DNA from: Candidatus Bathyarchaeia archaeon
GTDB taxonomy: Archaea; Thermoproteota; Bathyarchaeia; 40CM-2-53-6
Assembly (NCBI GenBank): GCA_050013255.1
Contig: JBEKFP010000003.1
Span: 96,001 to 160,000, forward strand
Length of the DNA: 64,000 nt
Direction of reading: 5' to 3'
Shown: piece after piece, positions 26,293 through 42,533 of the stretch
Position numbering within the stretch: position 1 is the first letter of the stretch
Layout of the letters: every line of letters begins with the position of its first letter
Position numbers and translations under genes: made by a program
The notes under the pieces: model-generated
What the model was told of the DNA's origin: nothing
Databases searched by the model: none
What the model saw: the letters and a program-made list of their open reading frames with translations, nothing else

Positions 26293-26472
26293 GGGGCCGT
26301 CGTCTAGAAGAGACTGCTTAGCAACTCTCTGGACAACTTGGTCTGGGAACACGATTCCGCCAACAGGATACCAGAGCGCAAATGCGCGCGGTGAACCTGG
26401 GGCGCTGGCGTCCCTAAGAACGAAAAGTCTCAGGGCCAGAGGTCGTGGGTTCAAATCCCACCGGCCCCACCA
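26293..26472 (+). tRNA. tRNA-Pro(GGG) with four introns (26308-26336, 26345-26364, 26375-26395, 26411-26441) and encoded CCA
   Basis: Removing four BHB-bounded inserts gives GGGGCCG TC GTCT AGCTTGGTCTA GGAT A CCAGC CTGGGGC GCTGG CGGTC GTGGG TTCAAAT CCCAC CGGCCCC A CCA, a complete cloverleaf. Confidence 0.92.
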
Positions 26473-26610
26473 TCTAACGAACCGTCTACCCTCAGCGAAA
26501 TTGCAACATTCGCATTCCATCTCAAAAAGAACGGCTAACGAGACTCCACGATTAGAGGAACAGTCCAGACACTCAAAGCCATAGGAAGAAACGTAAACCT
26601 GTTAGAACGA
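26473..26610 (+). pseudogene. Integrase remnant fused to the tRNA 3' end
   Basis: IPPAPPSNEPSTLSEIATFAFHLKKNG*RDSTIRGTVQTLKAIGRNVNLL matches the N-part of 35049..36086; TAA at 26536-26538. Confidence 0.88.
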
Positions 26611-26622
26611 ATAGCCACGATA

Positions 26623-26713
26623 AATTTCTGAGTAGAGACATAGTGCTAACGGCAGAGTAGTTTATCCACTTGTTAGCAGAAAACACTTGTGATAGGGACT
26701 CCAAGGACTTTAT
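26623..26713 (+). repeat. Conserved post-integrase element, copy 1
   Basis: Shares AATTTCT.AGTAGAGACAT, TGTTAGCAGAAAACACTTGTGAT and CAAGGACTTTAT with 36277-36377. Confidence 0.8.
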
Positions 26714-26737
26714 CCTATAATTGATACGCTAGAGGGC

Positions 26738-27526
26738 CTACCTCTTTCTCTTCCGCTGCCTAAGCAGCATAACTAGAGTGACCACGAACAGAGCAGCGAA
26801 TACTACAGCTCCGCCAGCATAGAGCTGGTCTGCTGAAAACGTGAATGCCTGGGTCAGGGGCTGCGAGATAGCTTCGGTTTTGAGAAGGTTCATCGTCGTA
26901 GACGCAGGAATGGGGTTCGTAGCAGTGGTGTACATTGTGAAAGTTTCGACTTGAGACTTTGCGGACCACACGTTCAATGTGTACTGGACAGACTTTCTGC
27001 TATTTCCGGTCGTTAGAATCCAATAGTACTGGCCATCGCCCGGAGCTGTCCAGGCGGTTTCATAGGATGTCAAGATTTGAAACATTGCAAACACCGCAGG
27101 CCAAGCGCCGTTGTAACCATTTTGTGTGCCACATACAACGACATTGGGTGTTATAGGAGAATAATCGGGTTCATTTATGATGTTCAGAGAAGCAAACTGA
27201 GCTGCCGTCATAATATAGAAAACAAGCGGATTGTTGTTCGACGTTATCGAAAAGGAAACTTCAGCGCCCTGGGTCACGACAAAATAGTCATACACGATGG
27301 GACAGAGTTGAAGCAAGGAACCCTGGGAGTACACATAGATTCCAGGTGTTCCACCCAGCTTGCCTGCATAAGGAGAGGAACCATAATCGGTAGTGTAGGT
27401 TGTTGTCCCATAGCTTGTAGCTACAGGGGTGGTGACCGTGGTATACGCCTGACTTTGAACTGCTGGCAAACTGACAACTGGAAGCATAAGTAGAATCGTT
27501 ACTAGAAGGCGAATAAATTTCGACAA
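26738..27526 (-). CDS. Secreted membrane-anchored hypothetical protein
   Basis: Signal peptide, Thr-rich segments, C-terminal TM + RQRKRKR. Confidence 0.75.
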   Translation of the reverse strand: MSKFIRLLVTILLMLPVVSLPAVQSQAYTTVTTPVATSYGTTTYTTDYGSSPYAGKLGGTPGIYVYSQGSLLQLCPIVYDYFVVTQGAEVSFSITSNNNPLVFYIMTAAQFASLNIINEPDYSPITPNVVVCGTQNGYNGAWPAVFAMFQILTSYETAWTAPGDGQYYWILTTGNSRKSVQYTLNVWSAKSQVETFTMYTTATNPIPASTTMNLLKTEAISQPLTQAFTFSADQLYAGGAVVFAALFVVTLVMLLRQRKRKR

Positions 27527-28163
27527 GGCTACTAAGTAGCTTTCATGGTTTACAATAAATCGCTTTGTATATCATACGGCATTGTTCTCGACTGATTGTG
27601 AGTCAGACGACTTCGTACCGAACGTTACAAGGACCGTTATAATACGATTAAGGACTACATGCGTCTTCGAGACGCCTAATCCATACTTTATCATCAGAGC
27701 GGCCAACTCTCAACAGCTTCAAGAATTGGAAGTTCCCGCCACTATCCGAAAGAGTCTTCAGCAAAGGCAGCTGCACGCTGGTTTGTTCCGGCAACGCCAT
27801 AGTATGGTCATTCAGATTGAGAATGGCACTCTAGGTTAAATCGTGACTCGTAATTGATTCTTTCCCAAGAATCAGCCCAAGAGACAGTTTTGGGTTCCTC
27901 TCGCTCGTCATGCTCGTCTACTTTCACAATTCACTGACCGTTAGACAGAAGCATCGAGTCCAGTTATTTGCTTACATGATTCACGGCAAGAACCGTGAAT
28001 GAAGTTGAGCTGTCCGATTTGTGACCTGGAACTTCTCGGCCAAGATAAATGCCCGCTGAAACGTTGCGAACGATGTTGCTTATGGTTTGAGCTGCAGGAT
28101 GACGGCAAGCTCATTCCCCTACGAATTGATAATCTAGCGAAATATCTCTAGAGCTGTCTAAGA

Positions 28164-28346
28164 TTGCTATTCGAGAACAAGTCAACTAGAAGTCCTAACT
28201 GCAAGAACCAACTAGTGTGGATTAGCCACGTTAAACTGTGGAAGCGTGCGAGGGAGATTAACGAATTCAATTTCTCCTGTGAAACATGCAAGCGCCAGTA
28301 CCAATTCATAGATAACAAGATTATCGAGAAGATACTCTCCTCCTAG
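28164..28346 (+). CDS. Possible small Zn-ribbon protein
   Basis: SPNC...CETC. Confidence 0.35.
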   Translation: MLFENKSTRSPNCKNQLVWISHVKLWKRAREINEFNFSCETCKRQYQFIDNKIIEKILSS

Positions 28347-28574
28347 ATAACCTGGTTTTTGTTTCGGAGAATTTTCTCAATGCTGCAATTCCTACTGTTG
28401 CAACCAAGAGGGACGCAGCCATTCCGCGTTTTGCTATTGGATTCTGCTGTGATGGCCAATGAGAACAGAGAAGTTATGGGCCTGAGAGGCCACTGGGGTC
28501 AAGGAAAACGGGGAGGATTTGGCAAGTATTAAGAGCCTTCGACTTCAACTTATAGATTCTCTAGGTTTGAAGTT

Positions 28575-29309
28575 ATGAAGAGATTCATCCCAGTCACCTT
28601 AGTCCTACTGTTCCTATTCGCGTTGCCCCATGTGGCGGCATCTCCAAGTGCCGTCATTCACAACAACACTAGCAACTACATAGATGAGGTTGGTTACCTT
28701 CATGTGGTGGGCGAAGCGCAAAATACCGGCGATGTTTGGTTACAATCTGTGCGCATCGGCGCCACCTTCAAAGACCAGAACGGCGCCGTAGTGGGTACTT
28801 CCTTCACTTACACGTTGCTCGACCGCCTGCCCCCCGGTGTTACTTCAGGCTTTGACGTGTTCGAATTTGACAAGGGGAAGTCGGCGATGATTCGAAGTTA
28901 CACACTCGCAATAGAGTTCGAGACGGCCGAACCATTGACCACTGCCCTAGAGATTATCAATACGTCCTCATCAAAGGATAGCTTTGGATTTTTGACTATA
29001 GTGGGCGAAGTCAAGAACAACGGTGACACAATCAGCGAATACACGGAAGTCGTAGCCATCTTCTACGGCGCCAACGGCAATGTGGTCGACGTGGGCTACA
29101 CGTTCACTGAACCGACCACCGTTCAACCGCGCAGCCAACAATCCTTCAAACTTATACCAACAAGTGACCCCCAGAGCAACTTAGCCACTAGGTGGGTCTT
29201 GGACACGCAAAGTAATCAGTATGCAAGTGTCTCCGAAACCATTTGGCCAGCACTCATGTTGGCCGCAGCCCTGTCCCTATGTGGTTTTGCTATGCGAAAA
29301 AAGAACTGA
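28575..29309 (+). CDS. Secreted protein with two FxLYD-like domains and C-terminal anchor
   Basis: Two 'VVGE.KN.GD....V.A.F...NG.VV' repeats; signal peptide; TM + RKK. Confidence 0.8.
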   Translation: MKRFIPVTLVLLFLFALPHVAASPSAVIHNNTSNYIDEVGYLHVVGEAQNTGDVWLQSVRIGATFKDQNGAVVGTSFTYTLLDRLPPGVTSGFDVFEFDKGKSAMIRSYTLAIEFETAEPLTTALEIINTSSSKDSFGFLTIVGEVKNNGDTISEYTEVVAIFYGANGNVVDVGYTFTEPTTVQPRSQQSFKLIPTSDPQSNLATRWVLDTQSNQYASVSETIWPALMLAAALSLCGFAMRKKN

Positions 29310-29400
29310 CAAGCGGATATCAGTGTGTTCGTGAGAGCTTCGCCCAACAAAATTGAGCTCATAAGGCCTGCCCGAAGTTTCTGACTAGGCTTTGGAGTCC

Positions 29401-29444
29401 CATGATTCCCACGATTCGTGGATTCGAATCCCATCGGCCCGACA
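29401..29444 (+). repeat. att-like tRNA-derived repeat, type A (degenerate)
   Basis: catgattCCCACgattcGTGGAttcgaatCCCATcggcccgaca. Confidence 0.8.
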
Positions 29445-29531
29445 AAAATCAAGGCTTCACAAAGATAATTAACACAAAGGCGAGGATTAAGATACTGGAA
29501 ACAGGTTTCGTCCAGCCTTTGAGTTGGAAAC

Positions 29532-30848
29532 TTGCCCTTTCCCGATCCTAAGGCTCTTGTGGCACTGGCTATTTTCGTCGCAACTTATGGTGTTCTAGCT
29601 TTTCGCAATGTGAAAGGATGGAAGTTTCCAATTTGGCTGATTCTGCTGATTGGTGCAGCTGCGATGGTTTTGTCAGGGTCGATCAGTGTAACCGACGCCT
29701 ACAAGGCAGTTGACCTTCATGTCATTCTATTTCTCTTCAGCATGTTCACTCTCGTCACAGCACTCGACATCGCAGGCGTCCTGGACGCATTTACAACTAG
29801 GCTCTTGCTTAGGGCGAAAAAACCCGAGGACGTCTTGTATCTCACATTCTTCGGCTTTGCAGCAGCCAGCGCCGTTCTGATGAACGACACCCTAGCCCTC
29901 ATGGGTACACCAGTCATGATTTCGCTCGCCAAGAAGATGAAGATTTCCTCACGACCTCTTCTTCTCACCTTAGCATTCGCTGTTACTATTGGCAGCGCCG
30001 TAACACCGATGGGAAATCCGCAGAACTTACTCGTAGCTTTGGGCAGCGGAATGCGTGCCCCCGTTCTCACCTTTGCGAGATACCTCCTCATTCCTACAAT
30101 AGTCAACCTCCTGCTAACCTACTATCTTCTGAGGCATCAGCTCCGCAACGAGTTTGCGAAAGCACGAAAAGGTTTCCGTGACCTGGTCGATTTCGAAGCG
30201 TCAACACAGAAAGACGTGATGAAAGACGGTGGACTGGCAAAGCTTGCCATCTCTGTCACCTGTCTAACTATTGCGGCAATCTTTCTCATAAACATCCTTG
30301 AAGAGGCAGGTGTTCCAACGCCTTTCGGAATCGCAGAGGTATCACTTTTCGGAGCAGCCCTGCTTTTGGCCCTCTCCGGTCGAAGCAGGGAGATCATTCA
30401 ATCGATCGATTGGGGTATCCTTGTTTTGTTCGCTTCTCTCTTCGTGCTTACGCAGGCCGTTTGGGATAATGGGATCATCGCGGCGATGGCGAGCTACTTG
30501 CCTACGATCAGTGCTCAGAATCCGCATTCTTCGATACTCGCAATTCTGGTTTCTAGCGTTGGGCTTAGCCAAGTCTTGAGCAATGTGCCGATGGTTGCGC
30601 TCTATATTCCGCTCATGAAATCATTGAATTTTGGTCCCCAGAACGTGTACGCCTGGATTGCGCTTGGAGGCGGAAGCACGCTGGCAGGTAATTTCACGCT
30701 CCTTGGGGCAGCCAGTACCCTCATAATTATCGAAGAAGCTGAAAAACAAGGGCACACCTTAGGATTCTTCGACTTTCTAAAAATCGGGATCATCGTAACA
30801 GCGGTCACAGTCGGGGTGCTCTACTTCTTCCTGCTTCTCGTAAGTTGA
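29532..30848 (+). CDS. ArsB/NhaD (CitMHS-like) ion transporter
   Basis: MND, GSAVTPMGNPQN, LSNVP, GSTLAGNFTLLGAAS; many TM helices. Confidence 0.9.
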   Translation: MPFPDPKALVALAIFVATYGVLAFRNVKGWKFPIWLILLIGAAAMVLSGSISVTDAYKAVDLHVILFLFSMFTLVTALDIAGVLDAFTTRLLLRAKKPEDVLYLTFFGFAAASAVLMNDTLALMGTPVMISLAKKMKISSRPLLLTLAFAVTIGSAVTPMGNPQNLLVALGSGMRAPVLTFARYLLIPTIVNLLLTYYLLRHQLRNEFAKARKGFRDLVDFEASTQKDVMKDGGLAKLAISVTCLTIAAIFLINILEEAGVPTPFGIAEVSLFGAALLLALSGRSREIIQSIDWGILVLFASLFVLTQAVWDNGIIAAMASYLPTISAQNPHSSILAILVSSVGLSQVLSNVPMVALYIPLMKSLNFGPQNVYAWIALGGGSTLAGNFTLLGAASTLIIIEEAEKQGHTLGFFDFLKIGIIVTAVTVGVLYFFLLLVS

Positions 30849-30853
30849 GTTGA

Positions 30854-30924
30854 TTCTCAGTATCGAGGGTTCGAGAGTCTCATTGGTCCCACGATTTGTG
30901 GGTTCAACTCCCATCGACTCCACG
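30854..30924 (+). repeat. att-like repeats: partial type C (30854-30874) plus type A (30881-30924)
   Basis: ttCTCagtatcGAGGGTTCga; cattggtCCCACgatttGTGGGttcaactCCCATcgactccacg. Confidence 0.78.
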
Positions 30925-30937
30925 AGTGATTGGATGG

Positions 30938-31250
30938 GGTCTTGCTAGAACTCAGGAAGCAGAAACGGCTCAAAATGGGACGATTTAGAAGTAGCCCCAC
31001 CGTACATTACAATTAAGTCCCACCGGCCCCACCACGAATTCTTGCGGTTCACGCGGCGGGTCTCAGATGGCATGACTTGAGGGATTATTTCCACACATCC
31101 TGCGTGAAGGTTGGCATTCCACACCGTGTAGTCCATTTCATGCTTGGACATGTGGCTGAACGAGAGGATCATTTCAGGGACATGATGTCTCGCGACATTG
31201 ACTATCTGCGGAAGGAGTACCTCAAAGTGGAAACACAGTGTTTCGCCTGA
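30938..31250 (+). pseudogene. Tyrosine recombinase remnant interrupted by the tRNA 3'-end sequence (31018-31034)
   Basis: RWHDLRDYF...HFMLGH...DIDYLRKEY (HxLR and LGH motifs); upstream KWDDLE-like segment in another frame. Confidence 0.72.
31018..31034 (+). repeat. Exact 17-nt copy of the tRNA 3' end
   Basis: TCCCACCGGCCCCACCA. Confidence 0.85.
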
Positions 31251-31427
31251 TCAAAACGAATAGTAAAACCATCATGTGTGAATGAGGGCACTTTGTCTGA
31301 CGAGAAAATCCCACAGACCCAGAAACGTCCGGTGATCAATCCGCCAAGAACGGGTAGTACGGGAGGTTCCCTGAGATGTTATCGATGAGTCAAGCGAACA
31401 TGGCCATGACTATCCTGGCGCTAGCTT

Positions 31428-31778
31428 TTGTGGGGGTGGGCTGTCTGTGCGGCGATCATTGGAGTTGGAATGATGTTTTCTTCTCAGATCAACGCCCTGA
31501 TAGCGCACGCAATTGGAGCACCTGTCGTCTTTGCGATTATATCCTTACTCTACTTCAAGAAATTCAGGTATACAACGCCGTTACAGACCGCCCTGATTTT
31601 TCTTGCATTCGTTTTCCTGATGGATTTCTTTGTCGTGGCTTTCGCAATCATGAGGAGTTTCCAAATGTTCATGAGCGTTCTCGGAACATGGATTCCTTTT
31701 GCTCTGATCTTTATCTCGACCTATGCGACAGGAGTGTATGTGACGATGACGCAGCAACAGAAAGGGGGTCACGTGTGA
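31428..31778 (+). CDS. Small multi-TM membrane protein, possibly N-truncated or frameshifted
   Basis: Four hydrophobic segments. Confidence 0.6.
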   Translation: MWGWAVCAAIIGVGMMFSSQINALIAHAIGAPVVFAIISLLYFKKFRYTTPLQTALIFLAFVFLMDFFVVAFAIMRSFQMFMSVLGTWIPFALIFISTYATGVYVTMTQQQKGGHV

Positions 31779-32482
31779 GAACTTTGGGAATGGAGTCCAT
31801 TCTCCTTTTCGGCTTTTATTGCTTCTTCTAGTTTCCTTTCTAACTCAGCAACTTCTTTTCTTTTTTCTGTTAGTTGTTCGGCAAGCAGGACTTTTAGTTT
31901 GGCTTTTTTTTGAACCGTCAAATAATATCCTTTTTCAATCTCTTTCCCTCCAGTCAATGCTGTTGCATTTTTAGAGCCGAATACAATAAGTTCTCCCGGA
32001 TTGGCCTCCAAGAATGCGGTGTTTGCAAGCACTTCTGATGCGTCTGCAAGTCTTTTGCCTTTATCTACGGCCTTTTCGACCTTAGTTGGAGGATCTGTTG
32101 AACTTACTTTTTTCTTTGCAAAGCTCAAGTTTCCGGCTTCGTCAACCTGCACCACCCGAGCACGAAAGCCGCCCCCGATGCCCGAAAAGATGCTAACCAT
32201 GCCCCTGCCGTTTTTGTGGTAGTAGACGCCCGCGGCCAAAGGCCTTCCAGCCCTTATGCTTTCAGTAGCATTCTTGTAAAAAAAAGTTCTTTGGCTCCAT
32301 TTAGTGCCTTCTGCAAAGGCTTCATCACTAGTTACTTTAGTAGCAAGTACTTTTGATTCTGTCCTTTCTCTTGCGGATGCGCTCATATTATCACCTTGAA
32401 ATTTCACTGATAATAAGGGTGCTGCCTTTCGATAGTTCACCATGCTCACGATGTCGAATGAACAGATGATTCGATAAGGCAT
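31769..32482 (-). CDS. Lys/Glu-rich hypothetical protein (likely start ATG 32387)
   Basis: Long ORF with AGGTGA before MSASARER; AT-richer than flanks. Confidence 0.6.
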   Translation of the reverse strand: MPYRIICSFDIVSMVNYRKAAPLLSVKFQGDNMSASARERTESKVLATKVTSDEAFAEGTKWSQRTFFYKNATESIRAGRPLAAGVYYHKNGRGMVSIFSGIGGGFRARVVQVDEAGNLSFAKKKVSSTDPPTKVEKAVDKGKRLADASEVLANTAFLEANPGELIVFGSKNATALTGGKEIEKGYYLTVQKKAKLKVLLAEQLTEKRKEVAELERKLEEAIKAEKENGLHSQSSHT

Positions 32483-32489
32483 TCAAGCT

Positions 32490-32653
32490 TCCTCCCGCAC
32501 AATATATTGTGCTGAAGTCCCACCCCCACGCCCCACGACGTGCACCTGTTGCGTTAAGGGCTAGAATGCGGCTAGTCGACTTCACGGGCTTCGAAAGAAA
32601 CCGACTTTATGCGGAAGGAATACGCCAAAGTCGAAAAACGGTTCTTCGTATGA
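32490..32653 (+). pseudogene. Second remnant of the 30938-type integrase
   Basis: YIVLKSH resembles YITIKSH; ETDFMRKEYAKVEKRFFV* resembles DIDYLRKEYLKVETQCFA*. Confidence 0.55.
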
Positions 32654-32816
32654 GTGTTGTCCGTTAATGCTATTTGGGCGTGTGGAGTAGTGATTGCGTT
32701 CGACGGGAGAGTGGCCCTTGGTCTGGTTGCAAACGACCTGACGAAGTGGTCTAACCTTCATATGAAAACATGCGGGGGTTGCCAAACCTTCGCTTGTTTA
32801 ACTTGGCTAACAATCC

Positions 32817-32873
32817 GTGGAACCCTCATAGAACCCACGATATTGGTGGGTTCGTATCCCACGGGCCCCACCA
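32817..32873 (+). repeat. att-like repeat, type B
   Basis: gtggaaccctcataGAACCCACgatattgGTGGGTTCgtatcccacgggccccacca; 54/57 identical to 42134-42190. Confidence 0.9.
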
Positions 32874-33057
32874 AAAATTTATTAATTTCACGAACCCGCA
32901 ACAATCACGGACAATTCCCTGATGGCCTTTTGACTCGTTGCTTAACTTTCGGTTTCACGAAATTAACCGACATCAGTCGAAGAGTTCAGAGAACCGTAAC
33001 CCTAGAAAGTAGTCAGATGACTCAAGAAACCCATATATTCTCAGTGTTGGTGAACTG

Positions 33058-34941
33058 TTGAAAGGGCTTGACTTGCTCAAGTCGCTTTTCATGCTAGTTC
33101 TAATCCTTTTCACATCAAGTGTGGTCTATGTTGCTGGTTCAACCCCGTCTTCGCCGAATCTGACAGTCGCAGAGATATACCCAACATGGAATGAGCAGGC
33201 GTCTACTCCAATCCTTCCGGGTTCGAAGGAGCAATTCCGTATCTACGTTCTGGTGACTAATTCGGGTGGCTACGAACCGCGGAACGCCACCTTGAACCTC
33301 AAGGTCTCATGGCAAGGAGCAAATGCCCAGGGACCAACCGAATATCAAGACAGCGTTGATGTGAAAAGTGGATCTGATGCTTTTGCCTACTTCGGACCGT
33401 TTGTAGCGGATTCGCCCACGAATATGACGGTGCTGGCCACTATTAACCCGAATCGCACCATTCAGGAATCAGATTATTCTGACAACGGCATGAGTGCCAC
33501 GTTCCACGTTGGTAAACTGTTTCCAACGGTCTCCCTTTTATCCGCTGGAACTCTTTGGCACGAAAACGAGACGCCGTCATTTTACTATACCTCTAGCGTT
33601 AGTTCTAGTGGTAACTATGAGAATCGGCTTCACGTCACGATGTCCCGCAACGGAGAAATTGTTGCAGTCCGCTCGGATTCTGGGCACATCAGTCTTTACA
33701 AGAACGGGACATTGATTTACGATCTACAGTCTACAACATTCTCGGATTCTGCTCTTTCGGATTCCGGAAAATACTTCGCCGTGAAGACTGACTCCATCAA
33801 ATTATTCGATGTGGATCAACTTGCTATGGGCAACAAGGCCCCGCTTGCTTCTGTCTCCGGAATGACAAAACTGGGGATGCTATCCTTCTGGAGGGTCGCG
33901 GTATCTGACAATGGCACGTTGGCGATTGCTGGATTCGCGAACTCAATCTTGAGCTTTGGTATCCTCAAAGTAATCGGCGACCCACAAAGATTCCAAGACT
34001 TTGGGACGGGAGTCTCGTGGGGGAAAGTTTTCGACGGAGATTCCCCGCATTTCGGTCCGAACTTTTATTATCTTATAGAAAGCCTAAGCTTTGACGACAC
34101 TGGTCAACTTCTGGTCGGACTAAGTGGATTTTTTGTTGGCAACCCCCATTCGCTGTCAAGACTTTACGGACCTAATCCATGGTTATACCTACTCGATTCT
34201 CTTGGAAATGTTGTATGGACTGGAAACGTTTCATCACGCGTCTCCGAGGATAGTGCAATTTCCTCCGATGGAAAGGCCCTGCTCACAGCCACGGATGACG
34301 GCCGTATCCATTACTTCGATAGATCAACAAACACCAATTTCAGTTTCTTCCTGGGGTTCAACACAGGGCCGAAGGGAAGCATAGGGACGAGCAATTCCCA
34401 GTTTGCGATTTCTCCTACCGGCGACTATCTAGCTGTAGCGGATTCGTCGAGCATCTACATCTTGGACGCAACCGGGGCACCGCTCTTCATGTTCCCCATG
34501 TCAAATGTCACTAGTCTCGCCCTTGGCGGAGGCTATCTCGTGGCTGGAAGATTAGGCGGTGCCGAGGAAATTTCTCTTTGGCAACCTGTTGATCAGGCAA
34601 TCGTTGAAGCTCAATCCCTCATAAACCAGGCACTTGGTGCGGGAGCCAACGTGACCCAAGCCGCGTCCATTCTGGCTTCAGCACAGGAGCAGAGGCGAGA
34701 GGGTGAATGGTACAAAGCATATTCGTATGCTGAAAGCTCGATTATTACTGCCAATCAGGCGTTGGCTTCGAGAACACTTTTCGCTACAGCTACAACAAGC
34801 TCATTAACACTGCCCAGCGGGCCGCCTGCCGAATTGCTCCCGATCGCAGTCATCTTGCCAATTGGAATTGCAGTGGTCATTCTTGTTGCAGTAACCTTGC
34901 TTATTACTGTCAGAAGGAAACGTCGGAAGACCGCCGAATAG
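33058..34941 (+). CDS. Secreted CARDB + beta-propeller surface protein with C-terminal TM
   Basis: Signal peptide, INPNRTIQESDYSDN (CARDB), 'AISSDG/AISPTG' WD-like repeats, TM + RRKRRK. Confidence 0.8.
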   Translation: MKGLDLLKSLFMLVLILFTSSVVYVAGSTPSSPNLTVAEIYPTWNEQASTPILPGSKEQFRIYVLVTNSGGYEPRNATLNLKVSWQGANAQGPTEYQDSVDVKSGSDAFAYFGPFVADSPTNMTVLATINPNRTIQESDYSDNGMSATFHVGKLFPTVSLLSAGTLWHENETPSFYYTSSVSSSGNYENRLHVTMSRNGEIVAVRSDSGHISLYKNGTLIYDLQSTTFSDSALSDSGKYFAVKTDSIKLFDVDQLAMGNKAPLASVSGMTKLGMLSFWRVAVSDNGTLAIAGFANSILSFGILKVIGDPQRFQDFGTGVSWGKVFDGDSPHFGPNFYYLIESLSFDDTGQLLVGLSGFFVGNPHSLSRLYGPNPWLYLLDSLGNVVWTGNVSSRVSEDSAISSDGKALLTATDDGRIHYFDRSTNTNFSFFLGFNTGPKGSIGTSNSQFAISPTGDYLAVADSSSIYILDATGAPLFMFPMSNVTSLALGGGYLVAGRLGGAEEISLWQPVDQAIVEAQSLINQALGAGANVTQAASILASAQEQRREGEWYKAYSYAESSIITANQALASRTLFATATTSSLTLPSGPPAELLPIAVILPIGIAVVILVAVTLLITVRRKRRKTAE

Positions 34942-35031
34942 GCGCCTGGATGCCGAGAGGTTATCAGCCGTAAAGCGAGAGTCGGGCCGTCAATAACTAC
35001 CGTTCGTGTGCGTTAGAGCTTCGAAAATGGC

Positions 35032-35076
35032 CATTAGTCCCACAAATCGTGGGTTCAAATCCCTCCGGGCCCACCA
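35032..35076 (+). repeat. att-like repeat, type A left arm joined to a CCCTC-type right arm
   Basis: cattagtCCCACaaatcGTGGGttcaaatCCCTCcgggcccacca. Confidence 0.88.
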
Positions 35077-36086
35077 CCTTTGGCAACTTCAAGACTGCAA
35101 CTGACAATATTGCCGACCTAGTGGAACCCGCATGGAACCCACGATATTGGTGGGCTCGTATCCCACCGGCCCCACCATTTAACGAACCGACCCCACTCAG
35201 TGAACTAGCGGCATTTGCTTTCTATCTGAAGAAGAACGGCTACCGGGATTCCACGATTAGAGGAACCGTGCAGGCTCTAAAGGCGTTAACGCATCACGTT
35301 AACCCCCTAGACCCTGAATTAGTGAAAGGCTACCTAGCTAGAGCAGACTGTTCCATTAATCGAAAAGGGAAGGTTTGCGAGGACCTAGACCGGTTCTATA
35401 AGTACAAAGGTATTCAGTGGGCCAAACCGAATTATCAACGAGTAGATACTCTGCCTTTTGTTCCCACAACCCAAGAAGCAAACGACCTGATAGCCTGCCT
35501 TGGCCCGAAAATGTCCGTGTTCGCTCTTTTGCTGAAAGAAATAGGTTGCCGGTTCAATGAGGGTTTCGGCCTGAGATGGCAAGACATCAACGTAGAAAAT
35601 AGTACCGTAACGATTACTCCGTTGAAGGGGTCCTATGCAAGGCAAATGAAGATAAGCCCCAAACTAATGGGACTACTCAATAGCCTTCACAAGAAATGGC
35701 CAACATACGTTTTCAGAAATCATAAAATTGAATTGTGGAAATCCTCTAAGCGATTTAGAACCGAATACATGTTTCAGAGACGCAGAGCCTCAATCAAGCT
35801 GAATCAGCCCAGACTAAACCTAGTCAGTTTCAAGAGCCTACGACATCACTACGCATGTAGGCTCTATGAATCAACGAAAGATATTCTCTTTGTTCAAAGA
35901 CAGATGGGACATAGAAGCCTGTCAAACACGGTTCGCTATACTCGGATGGTCAATTTCGATGCTGAAGACGATTTCATAGTGAAAGCGGCCAAAAATAAGA
36001 GCGAAGCGGAACCTCTGATAGAAGCGGGATACCAATACGTCGTTACCACGCCGGAAGGTTACATGTTATTCAGTAAGAGGAAATAA
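35049..36086 (+). CDS. Tyrosine recombinase/integrase; start codon lies within the att repeats (GTG 35049 or GTG 35121)
   Basis: GCRFNE (R), LKGS (K), FKSLRH, QMGH, TVRY (Y). Confidence 0.93.
   Translation: MGSNPSGPTTFGNFKTATDNIADLVEPAWNPRYWWARIPPAPPFNEPTPLSELAAFAFYLKKNGYRDSTIRGTVQALKALTHHVNPLDPELVKGYLARADCSINRKGKVCEDLDRFYKYKGIQWAKPNYQRVDTLPFVPTTQEANDLIACLGPKMSVFALLLKEIGCRFNEGFGLRWQDINVENSTVTITPLKGSYARQMKISPKLMGLLNSLHKKWPTYVFRNHKIELWKSSKRFRTEYMFQRRRASIKLNQPRLNLVSFKSLRHHYACRLYESTKDILFVQRQMGHRSLSNTVRYTRMVNFDAEDDFIVKAAKNKSEAEPLIEAGYQYVVTTPEGYMLFSKRK
35121..35177 (+). repeat. att-like repeat, type B, inside the integrase ORF
   Basis: 56/57 identical to 42134-42190. Confidence 0.92.
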
Positions 36087-36088
36087 CC

Positions 36089-36160
36089 GAGTTGATAGAG
36101 GCGGGGTTCGACTTCATCTTGCAGAAAGATGGGTTAGCATATTTTAGAAAACGGAAGTAA
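36089..36160 (+). pseudogene. C-terminal tail of another integrase of the same family
   Basis: ELIEAGFDFILQKDGLAYFRKRK* parallels PLIEAGYQYVVTTPEGYMLFSKRK*. Confidence 0.75.
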
Positions 36161-36276
36161 GACCTTGATAGCGCCTCTTGATGGCGACTCATCACGACCA
36201 TAATGGCGCTAATAATGCCGATAATCGTATACATAAATTCCCACCCATTTCTACTTACCGATTAACATTGTTTTGG

Positions 36277-36377
36277 AATTTCTTAGTAGAGACATGGAGT
36301 CTCGCCAGGGGCACAATGGTTGAACCGCCTGTTAGCAGAAAACACTTGTGATGCCATAAGGACTACAAGGACTTTAT
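36277..36377 (+). repeat. Conserved post-integrase element, copy 2
   Basis: Matches 26623-26713, with a 23-nt identical core at 36330-36352. Confidence 0.8.
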
Positions 36378-36387
36378 TCTTGCGAAG

Positions 36388-36852
36388 TTGGGAGAGCTTG
36401 TAGATTACATCGAAGACCGAGATGGTCTCCGAGTCGTTTTGGGCTACTACTACATGACCAGTACCAGCGTAGACGCATTGCGAAGTAGAAGATTGTTTGT
36501 AGGATTCAAGGAACAGTTAAGACAGTTGGGCATTGAGATGGTGATTGTGGAGAAGCGGAATGATAAGTCTGGGAACATTGACCCTCGTCTGATCTCCGAT
36601 GCTTATAGACGCCTGCTTATTGAGAGGAAAGCGCCTTCAAACTTGGTTCTTGTGTGCGGTGATAAGGACTATGAGCCGATGCTCGTCGATTATGAGAAGC
36701 AAGGTCGAAGAGTAGCTGTATGCTTCTATCAACCGGTGGGCGGGGGCGCATCGATAGACCTATTGACCATCAGTGGAGCAGAATTCATCGAATTCACCAA
36801 TCCGAAACAATCTTGGACGCTTCAGAAATGCTCTCTTTTGCCGAGCTTTTGA
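36388..36852 (+). CDS. NYN (PIN-like) domain protein, probably N-truncated
   Basis: D..L..D, LVLVCGDKDYEPML...GRRV. Confidence 0.72.
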   Translation: MGELVDYIEDRDGLRVVLGYYYMTSTSVDALRSRRLFVGFKEQLRQLGIEMVIVEKRNDKSGNIDPRLISDAYRRLLIERKAPSNLVLVCGDKDYEPMLVDYEKQGRRVAVCFYQPVGGGASIDLLTISGAEFIEFTNPKQSWTLQKCSLLPSF

Positions 36853-36936
36853 CCTCCCAAAACATCGCTTTCCTTTACCGAGCAACATGAAGGAAGGCAG
36901 ATAAGTCATAAATAGACAGCGGTAAACCTCCTCAAT

Positions 36937-37734
36937 ATGAAGCACGTTCTGGTTCTTGTTACTGCGTTTCTTTTGCTCATCGTGACCCTACCTTCGATAA
37001 GGGGCCAAGTGAACAATCCGGTAGCTTATCCACTGTTAAACCAAGTTACTGTTGACGGAAAATACACCAGTCCAAGGGAATGGAACGATACGATTGTGTT
37101 CGAGGCGGTGGCGGGATTGGGCGAGACGGTGTACTTCAGCGCAAAGTACGATTCAACTTACCTCTACACCATCTGGGATTTCCCTGAGTGCAAAACATCG
37201 TTCACAGGCAGCGACACAAAGGGTGCAAACCAAGTATTACTCTACTTAAATCCTCTCAACAAGCGTTCAGCCACTGTTGATAATACCATGTACCGCATCG
37301 CTGCTTGGGAGTACGGTGCCCCCGTCGCTCGTGTCTCGGGCTCTCAGGGCTTGACAGGAGGCGGATGGGCAGAATGGGCTCATATAGACGGCCATTTCCT
37401 CGCTGCCTTGCAGTACACCTCTTCGCCACACTCTCAAACTCCCCATTTTGTCCTCGAACTTCGCATCGCATTAACATTCGCTAATCTGAAGTCAGCGACC
37501 ACAAATAGCAGCATCGGAATCGCCTTAGGATGGGTGGACAACTTTGGGAATGGCTTCGAGGTCGATTATCCAAGCGACTATAATTACAAGGATCCGAGTA
37601 CTTGGGGAACTATGTCGTTCTCTCACATGGCAGTACCAGAATTTCCTTTGAGTCCCACAGTGCCGTTCTTGGTCACGATTTTTGTCACAATACTCGCATG
37701 TAAGATAGCAAGGAAGAAACTCGAGGGGCGGTAA
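36937..37734 (+). CDS. Secreted CBM9/DOMON-like protein with PEF-CTERM anchor
   Basis: VDGKYTSPREW, ELRI, PSTWG; VPEFP + TM + RKK. Confidence 0.75.
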   Translation: MKHVLVLVTAFLLLIVTLPSIRGQVNNPVAYPLLNQVTVDGKYTSPREWNDTIVFEAVAGLGETVYFSAKYDSTYLYTIWDFPECKTSFTGSDTKGANQVLLYLNPLNKRSATVDNTMYRIAAWEYGAPVARVSGSQGLTGGGWAEWAHIDGHFLAALQYTSSPHSQTPHFVLELRIALTFANLKSATTNSSIGIALGWVDNFGNGFEVDYPSDYNYKDPSTWGTMSFSHMAVPEFPLSPTVPFLVTIFVTILACKIARKKLEGR

Positions 37735-37987
37735 GAACTCATCTTCGTTCCGCTGATCAATCAGCAACGTTATTTGTGGTCTAACCCCGACACTGTTGGG
37801 CAACCCCAACCGAGTCTGTTTACTGGAAACCAGTACTACATGAAGCTCTTCGACTCGTTTCAAAGTGTGCGTGATATGCTCTATGCCGGAATACTAAACG
37901 CTACTATGAGTATTTATTTCGCTGAAAGAAACAATCAATGAAAGTACACGACACGTGCTAGCCGTATTCAGATACAGCGTTTTGTAG

Positions 37988-38010
37988 CTCAATAATTGAG
38001 GGTTCGTACC
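37988..38010 (+). repeat. Partial type C att-like site
   Basis: CTCaataattGAGGGTTCgtacc. Confidence 0.55.
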
Positions 38011-38082
38011 GCTTCGAGCTATCTTTCTCGTGTCCTTGCATTGATAGCTACCGAAGTTTCTCGTGAATCTAGTTGGAGATGT

Positions 38083-38123
38083 CATTAGTCCCACGAATCG
38101 TGGGTTCAAATCCCACCGGCCCC
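38083..38123 (+). repeat. att-like repeat, type A
   Basis: cattagtCCCACGAaTCGTGGGttcaaatCCCACcggcccc. Confidence 0.92.
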
Positions 38124-38212
38124 TATTAAGAAGACTTTGTCGTCTGTTCACAGCCATTTTCGCTTGGAAATGTTCCGTCATAATTCATTTAATCGGGTTT
38201 GTAATGGTTCGG

Positions 38213-38587
38213 TCAGAACTGAGATTCGGAAAACATTCTCTCGAAAGAGGCTTGAGGTAAAGGTTTGCCTTTTGACAACAGTAACAACCGCTGTCTGAAC
38301 CTGTCGGTCTTCTTACCAGATATTACCAAGGCTACGAGGGCTATGATAGTCGAGAAGCCGAGAGAGAAGAGAAAAAACCCAACTGTTAATGTTGACCTGG
38401 CATTACTCAGCCAGGAGCTGGTCAAGCCCCCGAGTGAAAATATGAAAACAATCATGATAATATTGATGGCTTTATCAATCGTCAACGTTCGTGATTCTAA
38501 CGCAGCCCGAAGCACGTCCAGTTGCCATTCTGCTTTTCGGGAGGGCACGCCTCTAGTAGAACGCTTCCTCGCTGCCATCTTAACCAA
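38213..38587 (-). CDS. Two-TM hypothetical protein
   Basis: Two hydrophobic helices flanked by basic regions. Confidence 0.6.
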   Translation of the reverse strand: MVKMAARKRSTRGVPSRKAEWQLDVLRAALESRTLTIDKAINIIMIVFIFSLGGLTSSWLSNARSTLTVGFFLFSLGFSTIIALVALVISGKKTDRFRQRLLLLSKGKPLPQASFERMFSESQF

Positions 38588-38745
38588 CTGAGAATAGATC
38601 TCTCTCCCTCCTAAATATCATGTAGCATTGAAGTTGCTTTGCTCGCCACCGGAATTCGACATTAGGGTACGTGTGTACGTTTCGTAAATTGGAAAGACTC
38701 ATTTGGGGCCCATTCGTTATTCTACTTGATTCGAGTGACTAAGCG

Positions 38746-39576
38746 TTGGAATCCACGCCAGAATTGGTTCGCAAGTTTGCACCTGAGATATCGTTCAGCA
38801 AGAACGAACCATATTTCCCTTGTCCGATTTTCTTCAGTGGTGCTGACATAGTTAGTAACAGGGAGAAGTACGAACCGCTTACGCCAGACCAGAAAAGGAA
38901 TTTGATCTCTTGCTATTATCACGTTTCTCGTTATGAATCTCATACTGCATACGAGTACTGGTACTACTATGTTTACAACGATTATTCTGGAGGATGGGAC
39001 TTGGGTGCTCCAGACATACACGACCACGATATGGAATTTGCGATAGTGTACGTCGATAATGCATCGGGCACTGTATACGCTCTAGCATTAAACCAGCACC
39101 ATTGGCGAAATTGGGTTTGGATGTCAAATGATTTGAAAGTGTTTGCCGAAGAAGGAGGGCACGGTTTATTCCGAAAAAGGACTCTACTTGACTCTTGGAA
39201 ACCTGGTGGCCTCACAATCAAGGTAGACCCAAAGGAATCGGTTGAATCACTCCGCAACAAATTCATTGATCCCGAACCTGCGAATCTCATGGAAAATGAC
39301 GGGACAATAAAGGGCCAAACAGCGATTTTTCTGGGAGCGTGGGCTAAACCAAAGGTTCCGTGGGTTCGACAAGAGTATGTCTTTCCTATTTCGCAACTTC
39401 TAGCAGACGCTGATAAAGACAAGGCACGCATGCTTTCCGCAGCTCCTCGTGCTATGATGTACCCAAGAGAGATTACGCTTAGTATTCCCTACAACAAACC
39501 TACACGAAAAGAGAACTTGGATGAAGCACTTCGGCTCCAACTGATTTCGGATCATCAATACAAAGCCATGCTATGA
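38746..39576 (+). CDS. Vps62/NPP1-like domain protein
   Basis: KFAP...E.YFP, YWYYY..ND, HDHDME, GGHG pattern. Confidence 0.55.
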   Translation: MESTPELVRKFAPEISFSKNEPYFPCPIFFSGADIVSNREKYEPLTPDQKRNLISCYYHVSRYESHTAYEYWYYYVYNDYSGGWDLGAPDIHDHDMEFAIVYVDNASGTVYALALNQHHWRNWVWMSNDLKVFAEEGGHGLFRKRTLLDSWKPGGLTIKVDPKESVESLRNKFIDPEPANLMENDGTIKGQTAIFLGAWAKPKVPWVRQEYVFPISQLLADADKDKARMLSAAPRAMMYPREITLSIPYNKPTRKENLDEALRLQLISDHQYKAML

Positions 39577-40398
39577 CAGCTTACACTTGGGACAAAGCCA
39601 TGTCACACCTTGGGGTCTCTCAGGGTGATTCTTATTGTCGAGTTTGCCTTCCGGCCCCCGGAAGTCATGGTATAATTCACATTCCTTTCTGAAAGCATCC
39701 TCAGGAGACTTTGAGTATTCGAACTTAAACCGATCATATCTGCCTATGTACTCCTTCAAGCGAGCCTTCACATCGACATCAGTGCGACTCATAAATTGAA
39801 CATAGAAAGTCTTGCCCTTCTTGAGCCCGAGAACATATACTCCAGCCGAAACATTAGAAACTTCCTTGTCAATCGTGCCTTCATCAAGCGGAAACGAACC
39901 CCTCAAACCAGTACTCCGGCGTCGCTCCTCAGTTAAGAAAGACAGGTCGTCTTGACTTTCTCGTGAATCCCTTCTTACGAGAGCTAGGATCCCGGCAACT
40001 AGCAGCAAGAGACCCCCAACATAGAAACCTGAAGCAACTATGACGCCGATGATTCCGCATATCACTAGACAGATGCCCCAGTTTCTGGGCTTGCTCTTAA
40101 CAAGGACTGCTGCAACAAGTCCAATGATAGAAATCAGAGCGGAAACTGCGGCCTGCGCATAGAGAGTCGTTGGGTTTCCGGAGAAAGCCTCCATGAAACC
40201 TCCGAGGAAGACCAATACAGGTACGAATAGAAGCCCCAGCACTCCACCAATCAAACCGAGAATAAGTTCAGGCATCCGACTAATGGGGGGTTTAGATGCA
40301 GCTTGTGATGACTTCGCATTCCACATGTCTGCTCCACATTTCGGACAGAATCTCATCCCAACTGCAGTTGATTCGCCACAATTCGGACAAAAGGGCAT
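39571..40398 (-). CDS. Zinc-ribbon + multi-TM + GIY-YIG-like C-terminal domain fusion
   Basis: CPNCG..FCPKCG; TM bundle; GVYVLG...RL...ECELYH...NHP...CPKC. Confidence 0.6.
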   Translation of the reverse strand: MPFCPNCGESTAVGMRFCPKCGADMWNAKSSQAASKPPISRMPELILGLIGGVLGLLFVPVLVFLGGFMEAFSGNPTTLYAQAAVSALISIIGLVAAVLVKSKPRNWGICLVICGIIGVIVASGFYVGGLLLLVAGILALVRRDSRESQDDLSFLTEERRRSTGLRGSFPLDEGTIDKEVSNVSAGVYVLGLKKGKTFYVQFMSRTDVDVKARLKEYIGRYDRFKFEYSKSPEDAFRKECELYHDFRGPEGKLDNKNHPERPQGVTWLCPKCKLS

Positions 40399-40520
40399 TG
40401 GCTGAACCTCGCATCTAACCCTCTAAGCCTTCGTATTTCAAACTATGCAAGACGGCCATTTCCTTACCGCATGCGAAATCTTAAGATGCGGATTGATAGA
40501 CACGCAATACTCGGTAAGAC

Positions 40521-41216
40521 TTGCCTTTCTGTATGAAATGTGGAAGCGAGTTTGCTGCTGGCGTGAAATTCTGTCCATCTTGTGGCACGCCAGTGACCTC
40601 ATCAGATGCTTCAAGTCATCAAGAACGTTACGGCACTAGAAACGTCCAACAGAGCGCCAGTCCAATTTCTGTGCCGTCAAAACCAAGGAACCTGTCAGCA
40701 AAACTGCTGGCCTTGTTATTCATTGTGTTCATCTTGGGTGTAGGACTGGGGGCTGGTTCGACTCACAGCGGAACGACAACTGTAACGGAGACGACTCAGA
40801 CCACGTATACGTTGCCAATCATAGTCACGGCAGAAACTAATGTTACAGAATACAAAACTGCAATGTCAGCCATATTCTCCGAATTTCACAACATAACGAC
40901 TCAGACCGCAGATAACTTTCATGCGTTCAGTATCGGGCAGATGTCTCGAACTGAATTAATCTCATTCGTGAGCCAGCAGAAGGACAACCTCAAAGTTCTG
41001 ACGGAACGCACCCTCAGATTACACCCTCCCCCAGCCTTCGCCGAAGCCCATGTCCATGTCGTCAACGCCTTGAGCCTTTGCTACTCAGCGTTTACGCTTT
41101 ATGAAGATGGCCTTATCCAGAACAACCCATCGTTGATCACAGAAGGCAACGACTTCGTTAACGAAGCGACAAACGAACTGCAAACCGCTACGTCAATCCT
41201 CAATTCCAACACCTAG
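40521..41216 (+). CDS. Zinc-ribbon, single-TM protein with helical external domain
   Basis: CMKCG..FCPSCG, TM, Thr-rich linker. Confidence 0.75.
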   Translation: MPFCMKCGSEFAAGVKFCPSCGTPVTSSDASSHQERYGTRNVQQSASPISVPSKPRNLSAKLLALLFIVFILGVGLGAGSTHSGTTTVTETTQTTYTLPIIVTAETNVTEYKTAMSAIFSEFHNITTQTADNFHAFSIGQMSRTELISFVSQQKDNLKVLTERTLRLHPPPAFAEAHVHVVNALSLCYSAFTLYEDGLIQNNPSLITEGNDFVNEATNELQTATSILNSNT

Positions 41217-41308
41217 TCGCTTTTTCCTAATGTCTCAAGTTTCATTTTCTAGCGAAAGTCGAGCCATCAATAACGAGTGTGCGTAGGCGTTCGGGCTCTG
41301 ACATTGGT

Positions 41309-41352
41309 TATTAGTCCCACGATTTGTGGGTTCAAATCCCACCGGCCTCACC
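41309..41352 (+). repeat. att-like repeat, type A
   Basis: tattagtCCCACgatttGTGGGttcaaatCCCACcggcctcacc. Confidence 0.9.
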
Positions 41353-41441
41353 GCTTTCGTGGGTATAATCAGCAACGCCATAGATGGAAGTGGTTCATAC
41401 GGCGTGAGAAGTATGAACCGATTGCCAAATGTCGGAGCTAT

Positions 41442-41720
41442 TTACATAGAGCCAACGAATTTCTTCGCAGCCTCAAGAATTGCCTGTTCCTGTTGTTTGA
41501 CCATGTCTTCCAACTCTTTTGCCTTTGCCGGGTCAAATTTCGGCAATGCTTTGGTTATCTTAGCGGCAACTTGTCCAAGCGATTGTACATTTGCGTGAAA
41601 TTCTCTCTTCGTGTTCGATGTAGTAAGTTTCCGAAGCGCCTCTTGGAATTCCCGCTTGAATGCCTCGAAGTCTCCAATTGCCCCAGTTTGTGCCAAGCTC
41701 CACTCCTCAGCGAACCTCAC
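41442..41720 (-). CDS. Small helical hypothetical protein
   Basis: 92-aa ORF with amphipathic helical composition. Confidence 0.5.
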   Translation of the reverse strand: MRFAEEWSLAQTGAIGDFEAFKREFQEALRKLTTSNTKREFHANVQSLGQVAAKITKALPKFDPAKAKELEDMVKQQEQAILEAAKKFVGSM

Positions 41721-41800
41721 TCATTCGTGAATTATAAGAAGTTGGTTCGTCTCTTTATTTTATATCACTTTGCCTCCGCTTAACTCTGCGCCTTATCTCA

Positions 41801-42247
41801 TTGTTTAGTTTACAGCAAGCAATCATGAAAGAATTGAACTGCCCAATGTGTCTAAGCCCGTTATCGTTAGCGAGCTTAGAGCAAATTTGGCGAGGCCCAG
41901 ATTTCGAACATCGGTTAACGTACTACTGTCATCTGAACCTACTACTGCAATCTGAACCTCTAGGTCAGCATGCGGAGAGGTTTAAGATATTTGATATTGA
42001 GTGCAAAATTCAGCGAGACAATTGCGCGAGGGACTTACTTGACACTCGAACCCTCAATATTGAGGGTTCGTATCCCTCCGGCCCCTTCACGTTTCGAAGC
42101 TTTAGGACTGCGGCTGACAATGTCGTCAGCCTAGTGGAACCCGCATGGAACCCACGATATTGGTGGGTTCGTATCCCACCGGCCCCACCACTTTCCTCTT
42201 TTCGAAAACCGTCAGAGTCCAGAACGCGAGGAGGATTAAATAGTTAA
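41801..42247 (+). CDS. ORF reading through two att repeats; candidate int(N) fragment
   Basis: GSYPSGPFTFRSFRTAADNVVSLVEPAWNPRYWWVRIPPAPP matches the integrase N-terminus. Confidence 0.45.
   Translation: MFSLQQAIMKELNCPMCLSPLSLASLEQIWRGPDFEHRLTYYCHLNLLLQSEPLGQHAERFKIFDIECKIQRDNCARDLLDTRTLNIEGSYPSGPFTFRSFRTAADNVVSLVEPAWNPRYWWVRIPPAPPLSSFRKPSESRTRGGLNS
42047..42085 (+). repeat. att-like repeat, type C, with perfect 24-bp palindrome
   Basis: CGAACCCTCAATATTGAGGGTTCG tatccctccggcccc. Confidence 0.88.
42134..42190 (+). repeat. att-like repeat, type B (last copy seen)
   Basis: gtggaacccgcatgGAACCCACgatattgGTGGGTTCgtatcccaccggccccacca. Confidence 0.92.
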
Positions 42248-42266
42248 ATATTTATTGAAAAAAAAT

Positions 42267-42533
42267 CTACTTTGTCCTGTACACCCTGTCATGGTGTTCA
42301 TAATCTTCGAGAATGACGGTCTTTCGTTGTTCGTCGATTGAAAAGAGGAGGACAAAGCTGCCGAAGTGGGCCCTCCTCATTCCGCCGAGTGGAAAGCGCA
42401 TTGGCTTGAATCTATGCGGGTCTTCGAGTATCTCCTCTATCTTCTTGGCTATGACTTCCATTTGATTACGATTCCTTTTGGCGAGCTTCTTGAAAATTCT
42501 GTCGACGTGCTCTCTTGCCTCTAAGGCGTACAT
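42267..42533 (-). CDS. RelE/ParE-superfamily toxin
   Basis: FKKL..., P..FKP...L.G.RR.H...FVLLF.ID...V....HHD. Confidence 0.85.
   Translation of the reverse strand: MYALEAREHVDRIFKKLAKRNRNQMEVIAKKIEEILEDPHRFKPMRFPLGGMRRAHFGSFVLLFSIDEQRKTVILEDYEHHDRVYRTK

Follow-up and report, generated by a model that had tools for sequence, protein, structure and literature searches.

How did about a dozen copies of one tRNA end come to lie in a row behind the tRNA gene itself? The question is raised by a 64,000-nucleotide stretch of contig JBEKFP010000003.1 (the window) from a member of the Bathyarchaeia found in peat and wetland and described as mesophilic. In it, about 12 copies of the last exon of a tRNA-Pro gene follow on the same strand as far as position 42190, forming an array of 15.7 kb. 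The initial annotation of this DNA preferred an archaeal analogue of the integron, in which one recombinase shuffles small gene cassettes, and kept a stack of decayed integrative elements as its more conservative reading. Our analysis favours the latter. We consider, with a probability of about 0.78, that positions 26473-42190 are an integration hot spot behind tRNA-Pro(GGG), containing at least three tandem units of one element family together with relics of others. Among the observations are the repeats, a site lying inside an integrase gene, integrase remnants, an empty site in the closest relative and a variable occupancy of the locus in other relatives.

The recurring tRNA end

The tRNA-Pro(GGG) gene lies at 26293-26472 on the plus strand and is interrupted by four non-canonical introns of 29, 20, 21 and 31 nt. 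Scanning of the raw window with ARAGORN and Rfam reported no tRNA, both programs missing this gene. It was uncovered by alignment of its acceptor stem and T-arm to a tmRNA model followed by removal of the four introns, and the spliced exons (79 nt) were accepted by ARAGORN. The gene is conserved in relatives. Its last exon (26442-26472), which constitutes the attachment core (attL), is exactly the part that recurs; this coincidence of the core with the final exon of a gene with four introns is relevant to the older view that introns in tRNAs limit integration. The CCA end is encoded in the gene, and a gene for the CCA-adding enzyme (24063-25502) is found just upstream.

The 17-nt T-arm was found seven times on the plus strand with at most two mismatches, versus 0.02 occurrences expected. 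At the coordinates of the initial annotation, a repeat finder recovered one family of nine 41-nt copies and one of three 57-nt copies, and a copy of the T-arm and 3' end is indeed present at every position that it listed. A degenerate site at about 32518, and possibly another at 43247, can be added to that list. We distinguished four forms of site, all on the plus strand. Type A sites (29401, 30881, 35032, 38083 and 41309) consist of a left arm CCCAC, a 5-nt spacer, the T-arm and the acceptor. The first of them (29401-29445) is decayed, the second (30881-30925) follows a partial site at 30854-30880, the fourth (38083-38123) shares the region 37988-38123 with a partial type C-like site (37988-38016), and the last (41309-41352) was recovered by the repeat finder. 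Type B sites (32817, 35121 and 42134) carry GTG, two GGAACCC repeats, an 8-bp palindrome and a 7-nt spacer; the one at 32817-32873 (repeat family D4), with T-arm, acceptor and CCA, marks the junction of B units 1 and 2. Type C, with a 9-bp palindrome and a GAGGG/CCCTC T-stem, is represented by the site at 42047, where the palindrome reads CGAACCCTC/GAGGGTTCG, and by partial copies at 30854 and 37988. Half-sites lie at 31018 and about 32518.

Two of these places are composite. The site at 35032-35076 (repeats D2 and D5) is a hybrid in which a type A left arm and T-loop are joined to a CCCTC right arm, and its right-hand flank is the same as the flank after the type C site at 42047. The right end of the island (42047-42190) is formed by that type C site, an 89-nt spacer and the type B site 42134-42190, which is the attR with the integrase start; this end contains a 135-nt repeat shared with 35046-35180.

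Some further regularities were noticed around the sites. At 30881-31034, 35032-35177 and 42047-42190, a full site is followed after about 90 nt by a second site, and copies of the first of these modules are present in many genomes of the genus. Three unrelated cargo genes end 91-93 nt before a type A site (29309/29401, 34941/35032 and 41216/41309); two of these spacings are explained by a conserved stretch, about 75 nt long, that precedes the core (34974-35080 versus 41251-41357, 77% identical). In the related genome G011 and in loose contig ends, an extra T-arm-like site (AAGGGTTCGAATCCCTT...) precedes the type A left arm by about 25 nt.

An intact integrase gene that contains its own site

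An intact tyrosine integrase gene (35121-36086, plus strand; PF00589, E 4e-19) lies where B units 2 and 3 meet, and the type B site 35121-35177 makes up its first 19 codons. The catalytic residues R193, K218, R290, H313 and Y322 are invariant in an alignment of 14 homologues, and the product is predicted to be active. The initial annotation had rightly placed a tyrosine integrase at 35049, although the start proposed there is probably too early. The open reading frame (ORF) spans 35049-36086, and the frame is open from 34974, running through both the A and the B site. Only 35121 (GTG) and 35049 are usable in-frame starts, because the following one, codon 50, falls inside the conserved N-terminal domain. 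On sequence grounds, translation most likely begins at GTG 35121, within the type B site. Among 11 type B left arms from other loci, 9 have GTG, ATG or TTG at the place of this start codon.

Since the frame reads through the tRNA-like site, integration splits the integrase gene. The attP site thus lies within the integrase ORF, and direct repeats of the 3' part of the tRNA flank the element with the tRNA regenerated, two features of elements of the Sulfolobus spindle-shaped virus (SSV) type. Two candidates for a longer N-terminal part of the gene were dismissed. The left flanks of type A sites are conserved over about 17 nt across copies and have no consistent start codon. As for the ORF 41801-42247, its first 60 amino acids have separate homologues and only the site portion is widely shared.

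The best match of the integrase in a sequence search of the PDB was a XerA-like protein (4a8e, E 2.5e-9), and the match to IntI4 covered 47 C-terminal residues only. IMG/VR, searched with this single integrase, yielded no relative and no free circular element.

We propose that the integrases of these elements are of the SSV type ('suicidal'), the site being a copy of the tRNA last exon within the first 19 or so codons and the left arm providing the start codon. A crossover in or beside the T-loop would regenerate the tRNA, now adjoined by a promoter-less C-terminal part of the integrase (C-part), and would move the left arm and site to the far end of the element. Integrases silenced in this way would decay by deletion, with the cargo retained ('gene capture'). 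Later elements would enter either the tRNA or existing right-end sites, giving three type B units with type A and type C sites between them. Where two units meet at 35121, the left arm of the first would have joined the C-part of the second, producing one intact integrase gene. Both the crossover at the T-loop and this order of events are what we infer.

Relics of other integrases

Several remnants of integrases were found in the array. A C-part remnant (amino acids 60-113) is fused to the 3' end of the tRNA at 26446-26607 (plus strand; 70% identity by tblastn), and a hidden Markov model (HMM) of the integrase family recognised it with E 1.8e-10 and 3.4e-6 (repeats D3, D9, D12 and D18). A deletion of about 950 nt follows, after which 26623-26716 matches 36277-36380, downstream of the intact integrase. 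At the right end of the island, amino acids 25-70 of the integrase match 42059-42196 with 72% identity. Just behind the intact gene, 36077-36157 (plus strand; HMM E 1.5e-5) is a C-terminal relic of another integrase, with matches to the 3' ends of two further integrase genes in the same genome.

A second, divergent type of integrase has also left traces. The half-site at 31018, made of the 3' strand of the T-stem, the acceptor and CCA, continues in frame into a 76-codon remnant (31018-31250, plus strand) with a box-II-like H..R..GH..Y pattern. The relic is 37% identical (E 3e-10) to a 461-amino-acid ORF of G016, and this ORF and a 499-amino-acid ORF of G018 match the PHROG integrase family (phrog_1 for G016). 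Pfam gave no match to the 76-residue relic, which is recognised only through the PHROG matches of its full-length relatives. At 32518-32653 (plus strand; repeats D8 and D11), a degenerate site is followed by a more decayed C-terminal relic of the same second type, for which tblastn returned only a weak match (53% over 19 amino acids, E 0.2). The interval 32873-35032 holds a single substantial gene, as had been annotated; it had also been described as lacking an integrase, yet a short, weak integrase-like stretch lies behind its site. Judged by these sequences, at least five intervals are traceable to self-integrating elements.

Occupancy of the locus in relatives and soundness of the assembly

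In the closest species representative (G014), with flanks about 91% identical, the entire 16.9 kb is absent; the breakpoints are 26473 and 43338, with 1.08 kb of other DNA between them. The absent DNA includes a variable segment past the last site (42191-43337), homology restarting only at 43338. This segment encodes on the minus strand a ParE-type toxin (42267-42533) and a DUF2683 partner (42534-42776), both identified with Pfam. Copies of this pair that are 95-96% identical occur in G033 and G004, without att sites nearby.

Other relatives show the same tRNA-Pro in other states of occupation. On a metagenome contig (L051) with 94% identical flanks, a complete integrase C-part lies at the tRNA together with other cargo, and homology extends into the tRNA-adjacent remnant of the window up to 26564. 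A C-part is fused to the same tRNA-Pro in G017 and G016. The order is tRNA, A site, B site in G018 and tRNA, NYN gene, site in G003, and G011 has another array at the locus. The content of the locus thus differs even among relatives with 91-94% identical flanks. Tandem type B sites were also found in G015, G014 and G018. In about 35 of 70 metagenome loci that carry the integrase family and have upstream sequence present, the C-part lies directly behind a T-arm and acceptor end, almost always with a tRNA-type left flank.

The genome itself has two further members of the integrase family, one of which is fused to another tRNA with the repeat 9.4 kb away (a 9.4-kb element with an integrase C-part, C2:250620-260053). 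A fourth integrase homologue is located at C3:28299-29357. On contig C1, a tRNA is followed by three downstream copies of its own 3' end (165388-171865), and a second tRNA-Pro has a type B site at a distance of 2.3 kb (122346-124730).

An array of repeats could also be produced by an assembler, through collapse or chimera formation at the repeated tRNA end, and De Bruijn contigs do break at every well-kept site. This was seen in Logan contigs from four runs, in which each interval is nevertheless unique sequence of even depth. In addition, gene order and gene content are the same on the contigs of four independent Joint Genome Institute (JGI) assemblies, which reach 54 kb, and the stretch is present in 20 sequencing runs from 2017-2020. 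These data exclude the artefact that the initial annotation had named as a possible refutation, and we give it practically no weight. The fixed order in all assemblies of this array also speaks against the cassette shuffling that had been proposed. The Logan contigs are unable to show rare forms (circles, scars or rearrangements): the sides of their joints measure 23-51 nt and possibly stem from other organisms or repeats, and diagnostic junctions differ from existing sequence by a single base. A joint from 26473 to 43338, equal to the empty-site breakpoints of G014, appeared in all four runs; with a side of only 29-30 nt, too short for the bridging rule, it was not counted as evidence.

The repeats might alternatively act at the level of RNA, as pseudo-tRNAs, as 3' halves of split tRNAs or as another RNA element, and not as recombination sites. 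The heavily fragmented tRNA genes of the host and the retention of T-arm, acceptor and CCA in the copies would fit this explanation. It does not account for the copies located within integrase frames or at their beginning, nor for those at the borders of DNA that is absent from relatives. Moreover, many copies are decayed, neither matching 5' halves nor complementarity to a leader was seen, and Rfam reports nothing at the copies. We therefore regard an RNA element as very improbable.

Left arm and crossover point

The initial annotation had noted that a non-tRNA left arm forms an inverted repeat with the T-stem, and this feature proved real for nearly every copy outside the tRNA. A perfect stem of 5-9 bp between the left arm and the 5' strand of the T-stem is present at 29 of 43 element-borne sites in the window and related loci, versus none of 10 genuine tRNA or attL copies. 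The two sides of the palindrome vary together, as in CCCTC/GAGGG and, in G018 and G004, GTACCCAC/GTGGGTAC. Because the left arm is found in differing reading frames and with differing spacer lengths, coding constraint does not explain it. The left arm might serve the integrase as an additional binding site, marking attP and attR. Its conservation and covariation suggest a previously unrecognised part of the attP architecture.

Information on the crossover point comes from three sites in which the left half of one site or tRNA is fused to the right half of another, the split falling at the T-loop. They are the hybrid at 35032, a chimera of another tRNA with a Pro-type right half in G018 and a similar chimera in G011. 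In the latter two (L035:16401-16454 and L037:16032-16085), a non-Pro tRNA body with the 5' strand of its T-stem is joined to a Pro-type 3' T-stem strand and acceptor. This composition suggests off-target integration, which would change the acceptor stem of that tRNA. The hybrid sites are compatible with a duplex crossover at the T-loop, and we infer a 7-bp overlap located there, with the T-stem strands as core binding sites. An overlap in the T-loop with core binding sites in the T-stem is the classical arrangement of tRNA att sites (PMC8371274).

Cargo units and the integron question

Delimited by type B sites, the array consists of three tandem units: from the tRNA to 32873; 32846-35177, with one cargo gene; and 35150-42190, with the integrase, an NYN-domain protein and membrane proteins. 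Within the first, a unit at 29460-30925 (plus strand) carries a transporter gene (29532-30848; Pfam CitMHS, E 4e-54). The sole gene of the second (33058-34941, plus strand) codes for a 627-amino-acid secreted, membrane-anchored protein, with a signal peptide, a C-terminal transmembrane segment and a basic tail recognised from the sequence; Pfam assigned this protein to no family with confidence. In the third, the region 36388-37734 (plus strand) encodes a secreted protein (36937-37734) and the NYN protein (36388-36852; Pfam NYN, E 3.9e-9), which has a homologue in the G003 island at tRNA-Pro. The cargo at 38265-41216 lies on both strands and includes zinc-ribbon membrane proteins (39571-40398, minus strand; 40521-41216, plus strand) and proteins of unknown function; homologues in G013 and G011 have no att sites nearby. 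Minus-strand ORFs occur at 26738, 31769 and 39571, and the intervals contain 0-4 genes.

One further segment calls for mention. Inside the minus-strand ORF 31769-32482, which encodes an unknown protein of 237 amino acids, 584 nt (31820-32403) are 98.6% identical to G018 and 96% identical to G016, although the core genes of those two species show only about 61-75% identity in their proteins. The ends of the gene are not shared, and as the shared piece is internal to the ORF it was rejected as a site-bounded cassette.

Do these units behave as cassettes? The most specific form of this proposal is that the rebuilt integrase moves integrase-less, site-bounded units of one gene, such as the CitMHS unit or the 2.3-kb unit 32846-35177, between tRNA-derived sites, with the tripartite palindrome of the left arm and the two T-stem strands as a dedicated signal. 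If true, such mobilisation would be an archaeal functional analogue of gene shuffling by integrons or by accretion, based on a suicidal integrase; we find it unlikely, but not negligible. As a reading of the whole array, in which units of a gene and a 3' site are circularised and re-inserted into any tRNA-derived site by the one intact integrase and the tripartite palindrome serves as signal, we judge it unlikely.

The CitMHS unit offers the best argument for mobility. It is 91.7% identical over 1466 nt to a segment of another array (L127:9902-11362), and to the right this homology stops at the A core, to the left about 15 nt past the decayed A site. Moreover, in four contexts CitMHS has an att site behind it, and these sites belong to three different types. 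Later, differing insertions around an inherited unit would explain these observations equally well. Three tandem direct type B sites and five type A sites, one-gene units beside an intact integrase, the stops of three cargo genes 91-93 nt ahead of a type A site and the compensatory changes in the left-arm palindrome would also fit a cassette system. The same is true of integrase-less, site-bounded units, which are common in this genome and genus; here such units share the att sites at 32817, 35121 and 42134 and lie beside the intact integrase, as expected for accretion or for cis-mobilisable elements (CIMEs). Set against mobility are the identical order in four assemblies, the presence of the stretch in 20 runs spanning four years, the integrase relics within at least five intervals, and the mixed orientation and multiple genes of some intervals. 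Other cargo is found in relatives without att sites, with homology limited to the gene, and the 98.6%-identical piece shared with G018 is gene-internal and not site-bounded.

The defining integron features that we examined are missing as well. An integron has IntI, attI and a promoter at its head, whereas the sole intact integrase of this array lies in its middle and contains its own site. Instead of single promoterless ORFs in one orientation, we found minus-strand ORFs, intervals of 0-4 genes and relics. Because of the relics inside intervals, the mixed orientation, the intervals with several genes, the fixed order and the absence of an integrase at the head, the integron analogue preferred by the initial annotation is left unsupported, its sites being copies of a tRNA.

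We favour the stack of suicidally integrated elements because a C-part remnant adjoins the tRNA and a left arm with site closes the island; because relatives show an empty site, fresh C-parts or other arrays at the same tRNA; because relics of a second integrase follow the sites 31018 and 32518; and because genes lie on both strands and cargo homologues occur elsewhere without att sites. The conservative alternative of the initial annotation thus finds support in the site inside the ORF, the C-part remnants behind the tRNA and three internal sites, the empty site of G014 and the fresh fusions of integrase and tRNA in other species. Several observations nevertheless weigh against it. Decay is most advanced in the sites nearest the tRNA and least in the distal ones, the opposite of simple accretion with the newest element next to the tRNA. 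The T-loop of type B sites reads TTCGTAT versus TTCAAAT in the tRNA, and the overlap would be mismatched if they had formed there; probably type B sites arose at another tRNA-Pro or through integration into earlier right-end sites. The model of suicidal integration gives no account of what the conserved left-arm palindrome does. The PDB sequence search matched no SSV1 integrase chain, the nearest proteins being XerA-like recombinases. Finally, when six-frame pieces were searched with the integrase-family HMM, no relic was detected within 29445-30880, 38124-41308 or 41350-42046, a silence that does not prove that an integrase never existed in these three intervals.

Comparison with known systems

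SSV-type (type I, suicidal) elements and gene capture by them are known from Sulfolobales and Thermococcales (She et al. 2001 Nature 409:478; PMC7253208; PMC8371274). In their layout attP lies inside the integrase gene, the C-part beside the tRNA and the N-terminal part at the far end (PMC7253208, PMC8371274). Tandem arrays and gene capture by such integrases have been described (PMC8371274, PMC7253208, PMC6563490), and a tandem route was proposed to rebuild a suicidal integrase, although tandem integrations were never observed in the data sets concerned (Badel et al. 2020, PMC7253208). The array described here resembles these elements in having attP in the integrase ORF, a tRNA 3' end as target, a split gene, an element that is locked and decaying, and cargo that is kept. 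It differs in that the N-terminal part comprises only about 10-19 codons plus the start codon, and in the additional left arm of the element-borne site, which forms a palindrome with the T-stem. Unlike in the data sets of Badel et al., tandem units are present, with an intact integrase rebuilt at a junction. This would be a natural example of tandem suicidal units with a reconstituted integrase, the intermediate predicted for excision and target switching and reported as never observed. The host also differs, being a mesophilic peat member of the Bathyarchaeia, and the enzyme is closer in sequence to XerA-like proteins. Bathyarchaeia are a major lineage of sediment and peat whose mobile elements are poorly described; our reading would imply that self-splitting SSV-type integrases operate in its mesophilic members and drive the capture of transporter and surface-protein genes at a tRNA hot spot.

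Thaumarchaeota harbour comparable cryptic integrated elements, among them NitEve-E3, whose SSV1-like integrase is split (Krupovic et al. 2019, PMC6563490). These elements are likewise small, carry an integrase without replication or virion genes, reside in tRNA genes, some of which contain introns, and have transporter and surface-protein cargo. Unlike the present locus, that survey reported one split integrase, short att sites and no such multi-unit array (PMC6563490).

With integrons the array shares gene units separated by partly palindromic recombination sites and the presence of a tyrosine recombinase. Unlike in integrons, the head of the array has neither an IntI-type integrase nor attI or Pc, copies of a tRNA take the place of attC, the orientation is mixed, and some units have several genes and integrase relics inside them.

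Beside the integrative and conjugative elements (ICEs) of Streptococcus, CIMEs are integrase-less, att-flanked islands that accrete in tandem at a tRNA or attB, next to an element whose integrase is functional. These systems are bacterial, use non-suicidal integrases and excisionases, and co-excision has been shown. The likeness in layout here consists of integrase-less, att-bounded units in tandem beside an intact integrase. As a whole, the locus is a known kind of archaeal gene capture with variations of its own, namely tandem units among which an integrase has been rebuilt, the palindromic left arm and the coincidence of the core with the last exon of the four-intron tRNA.

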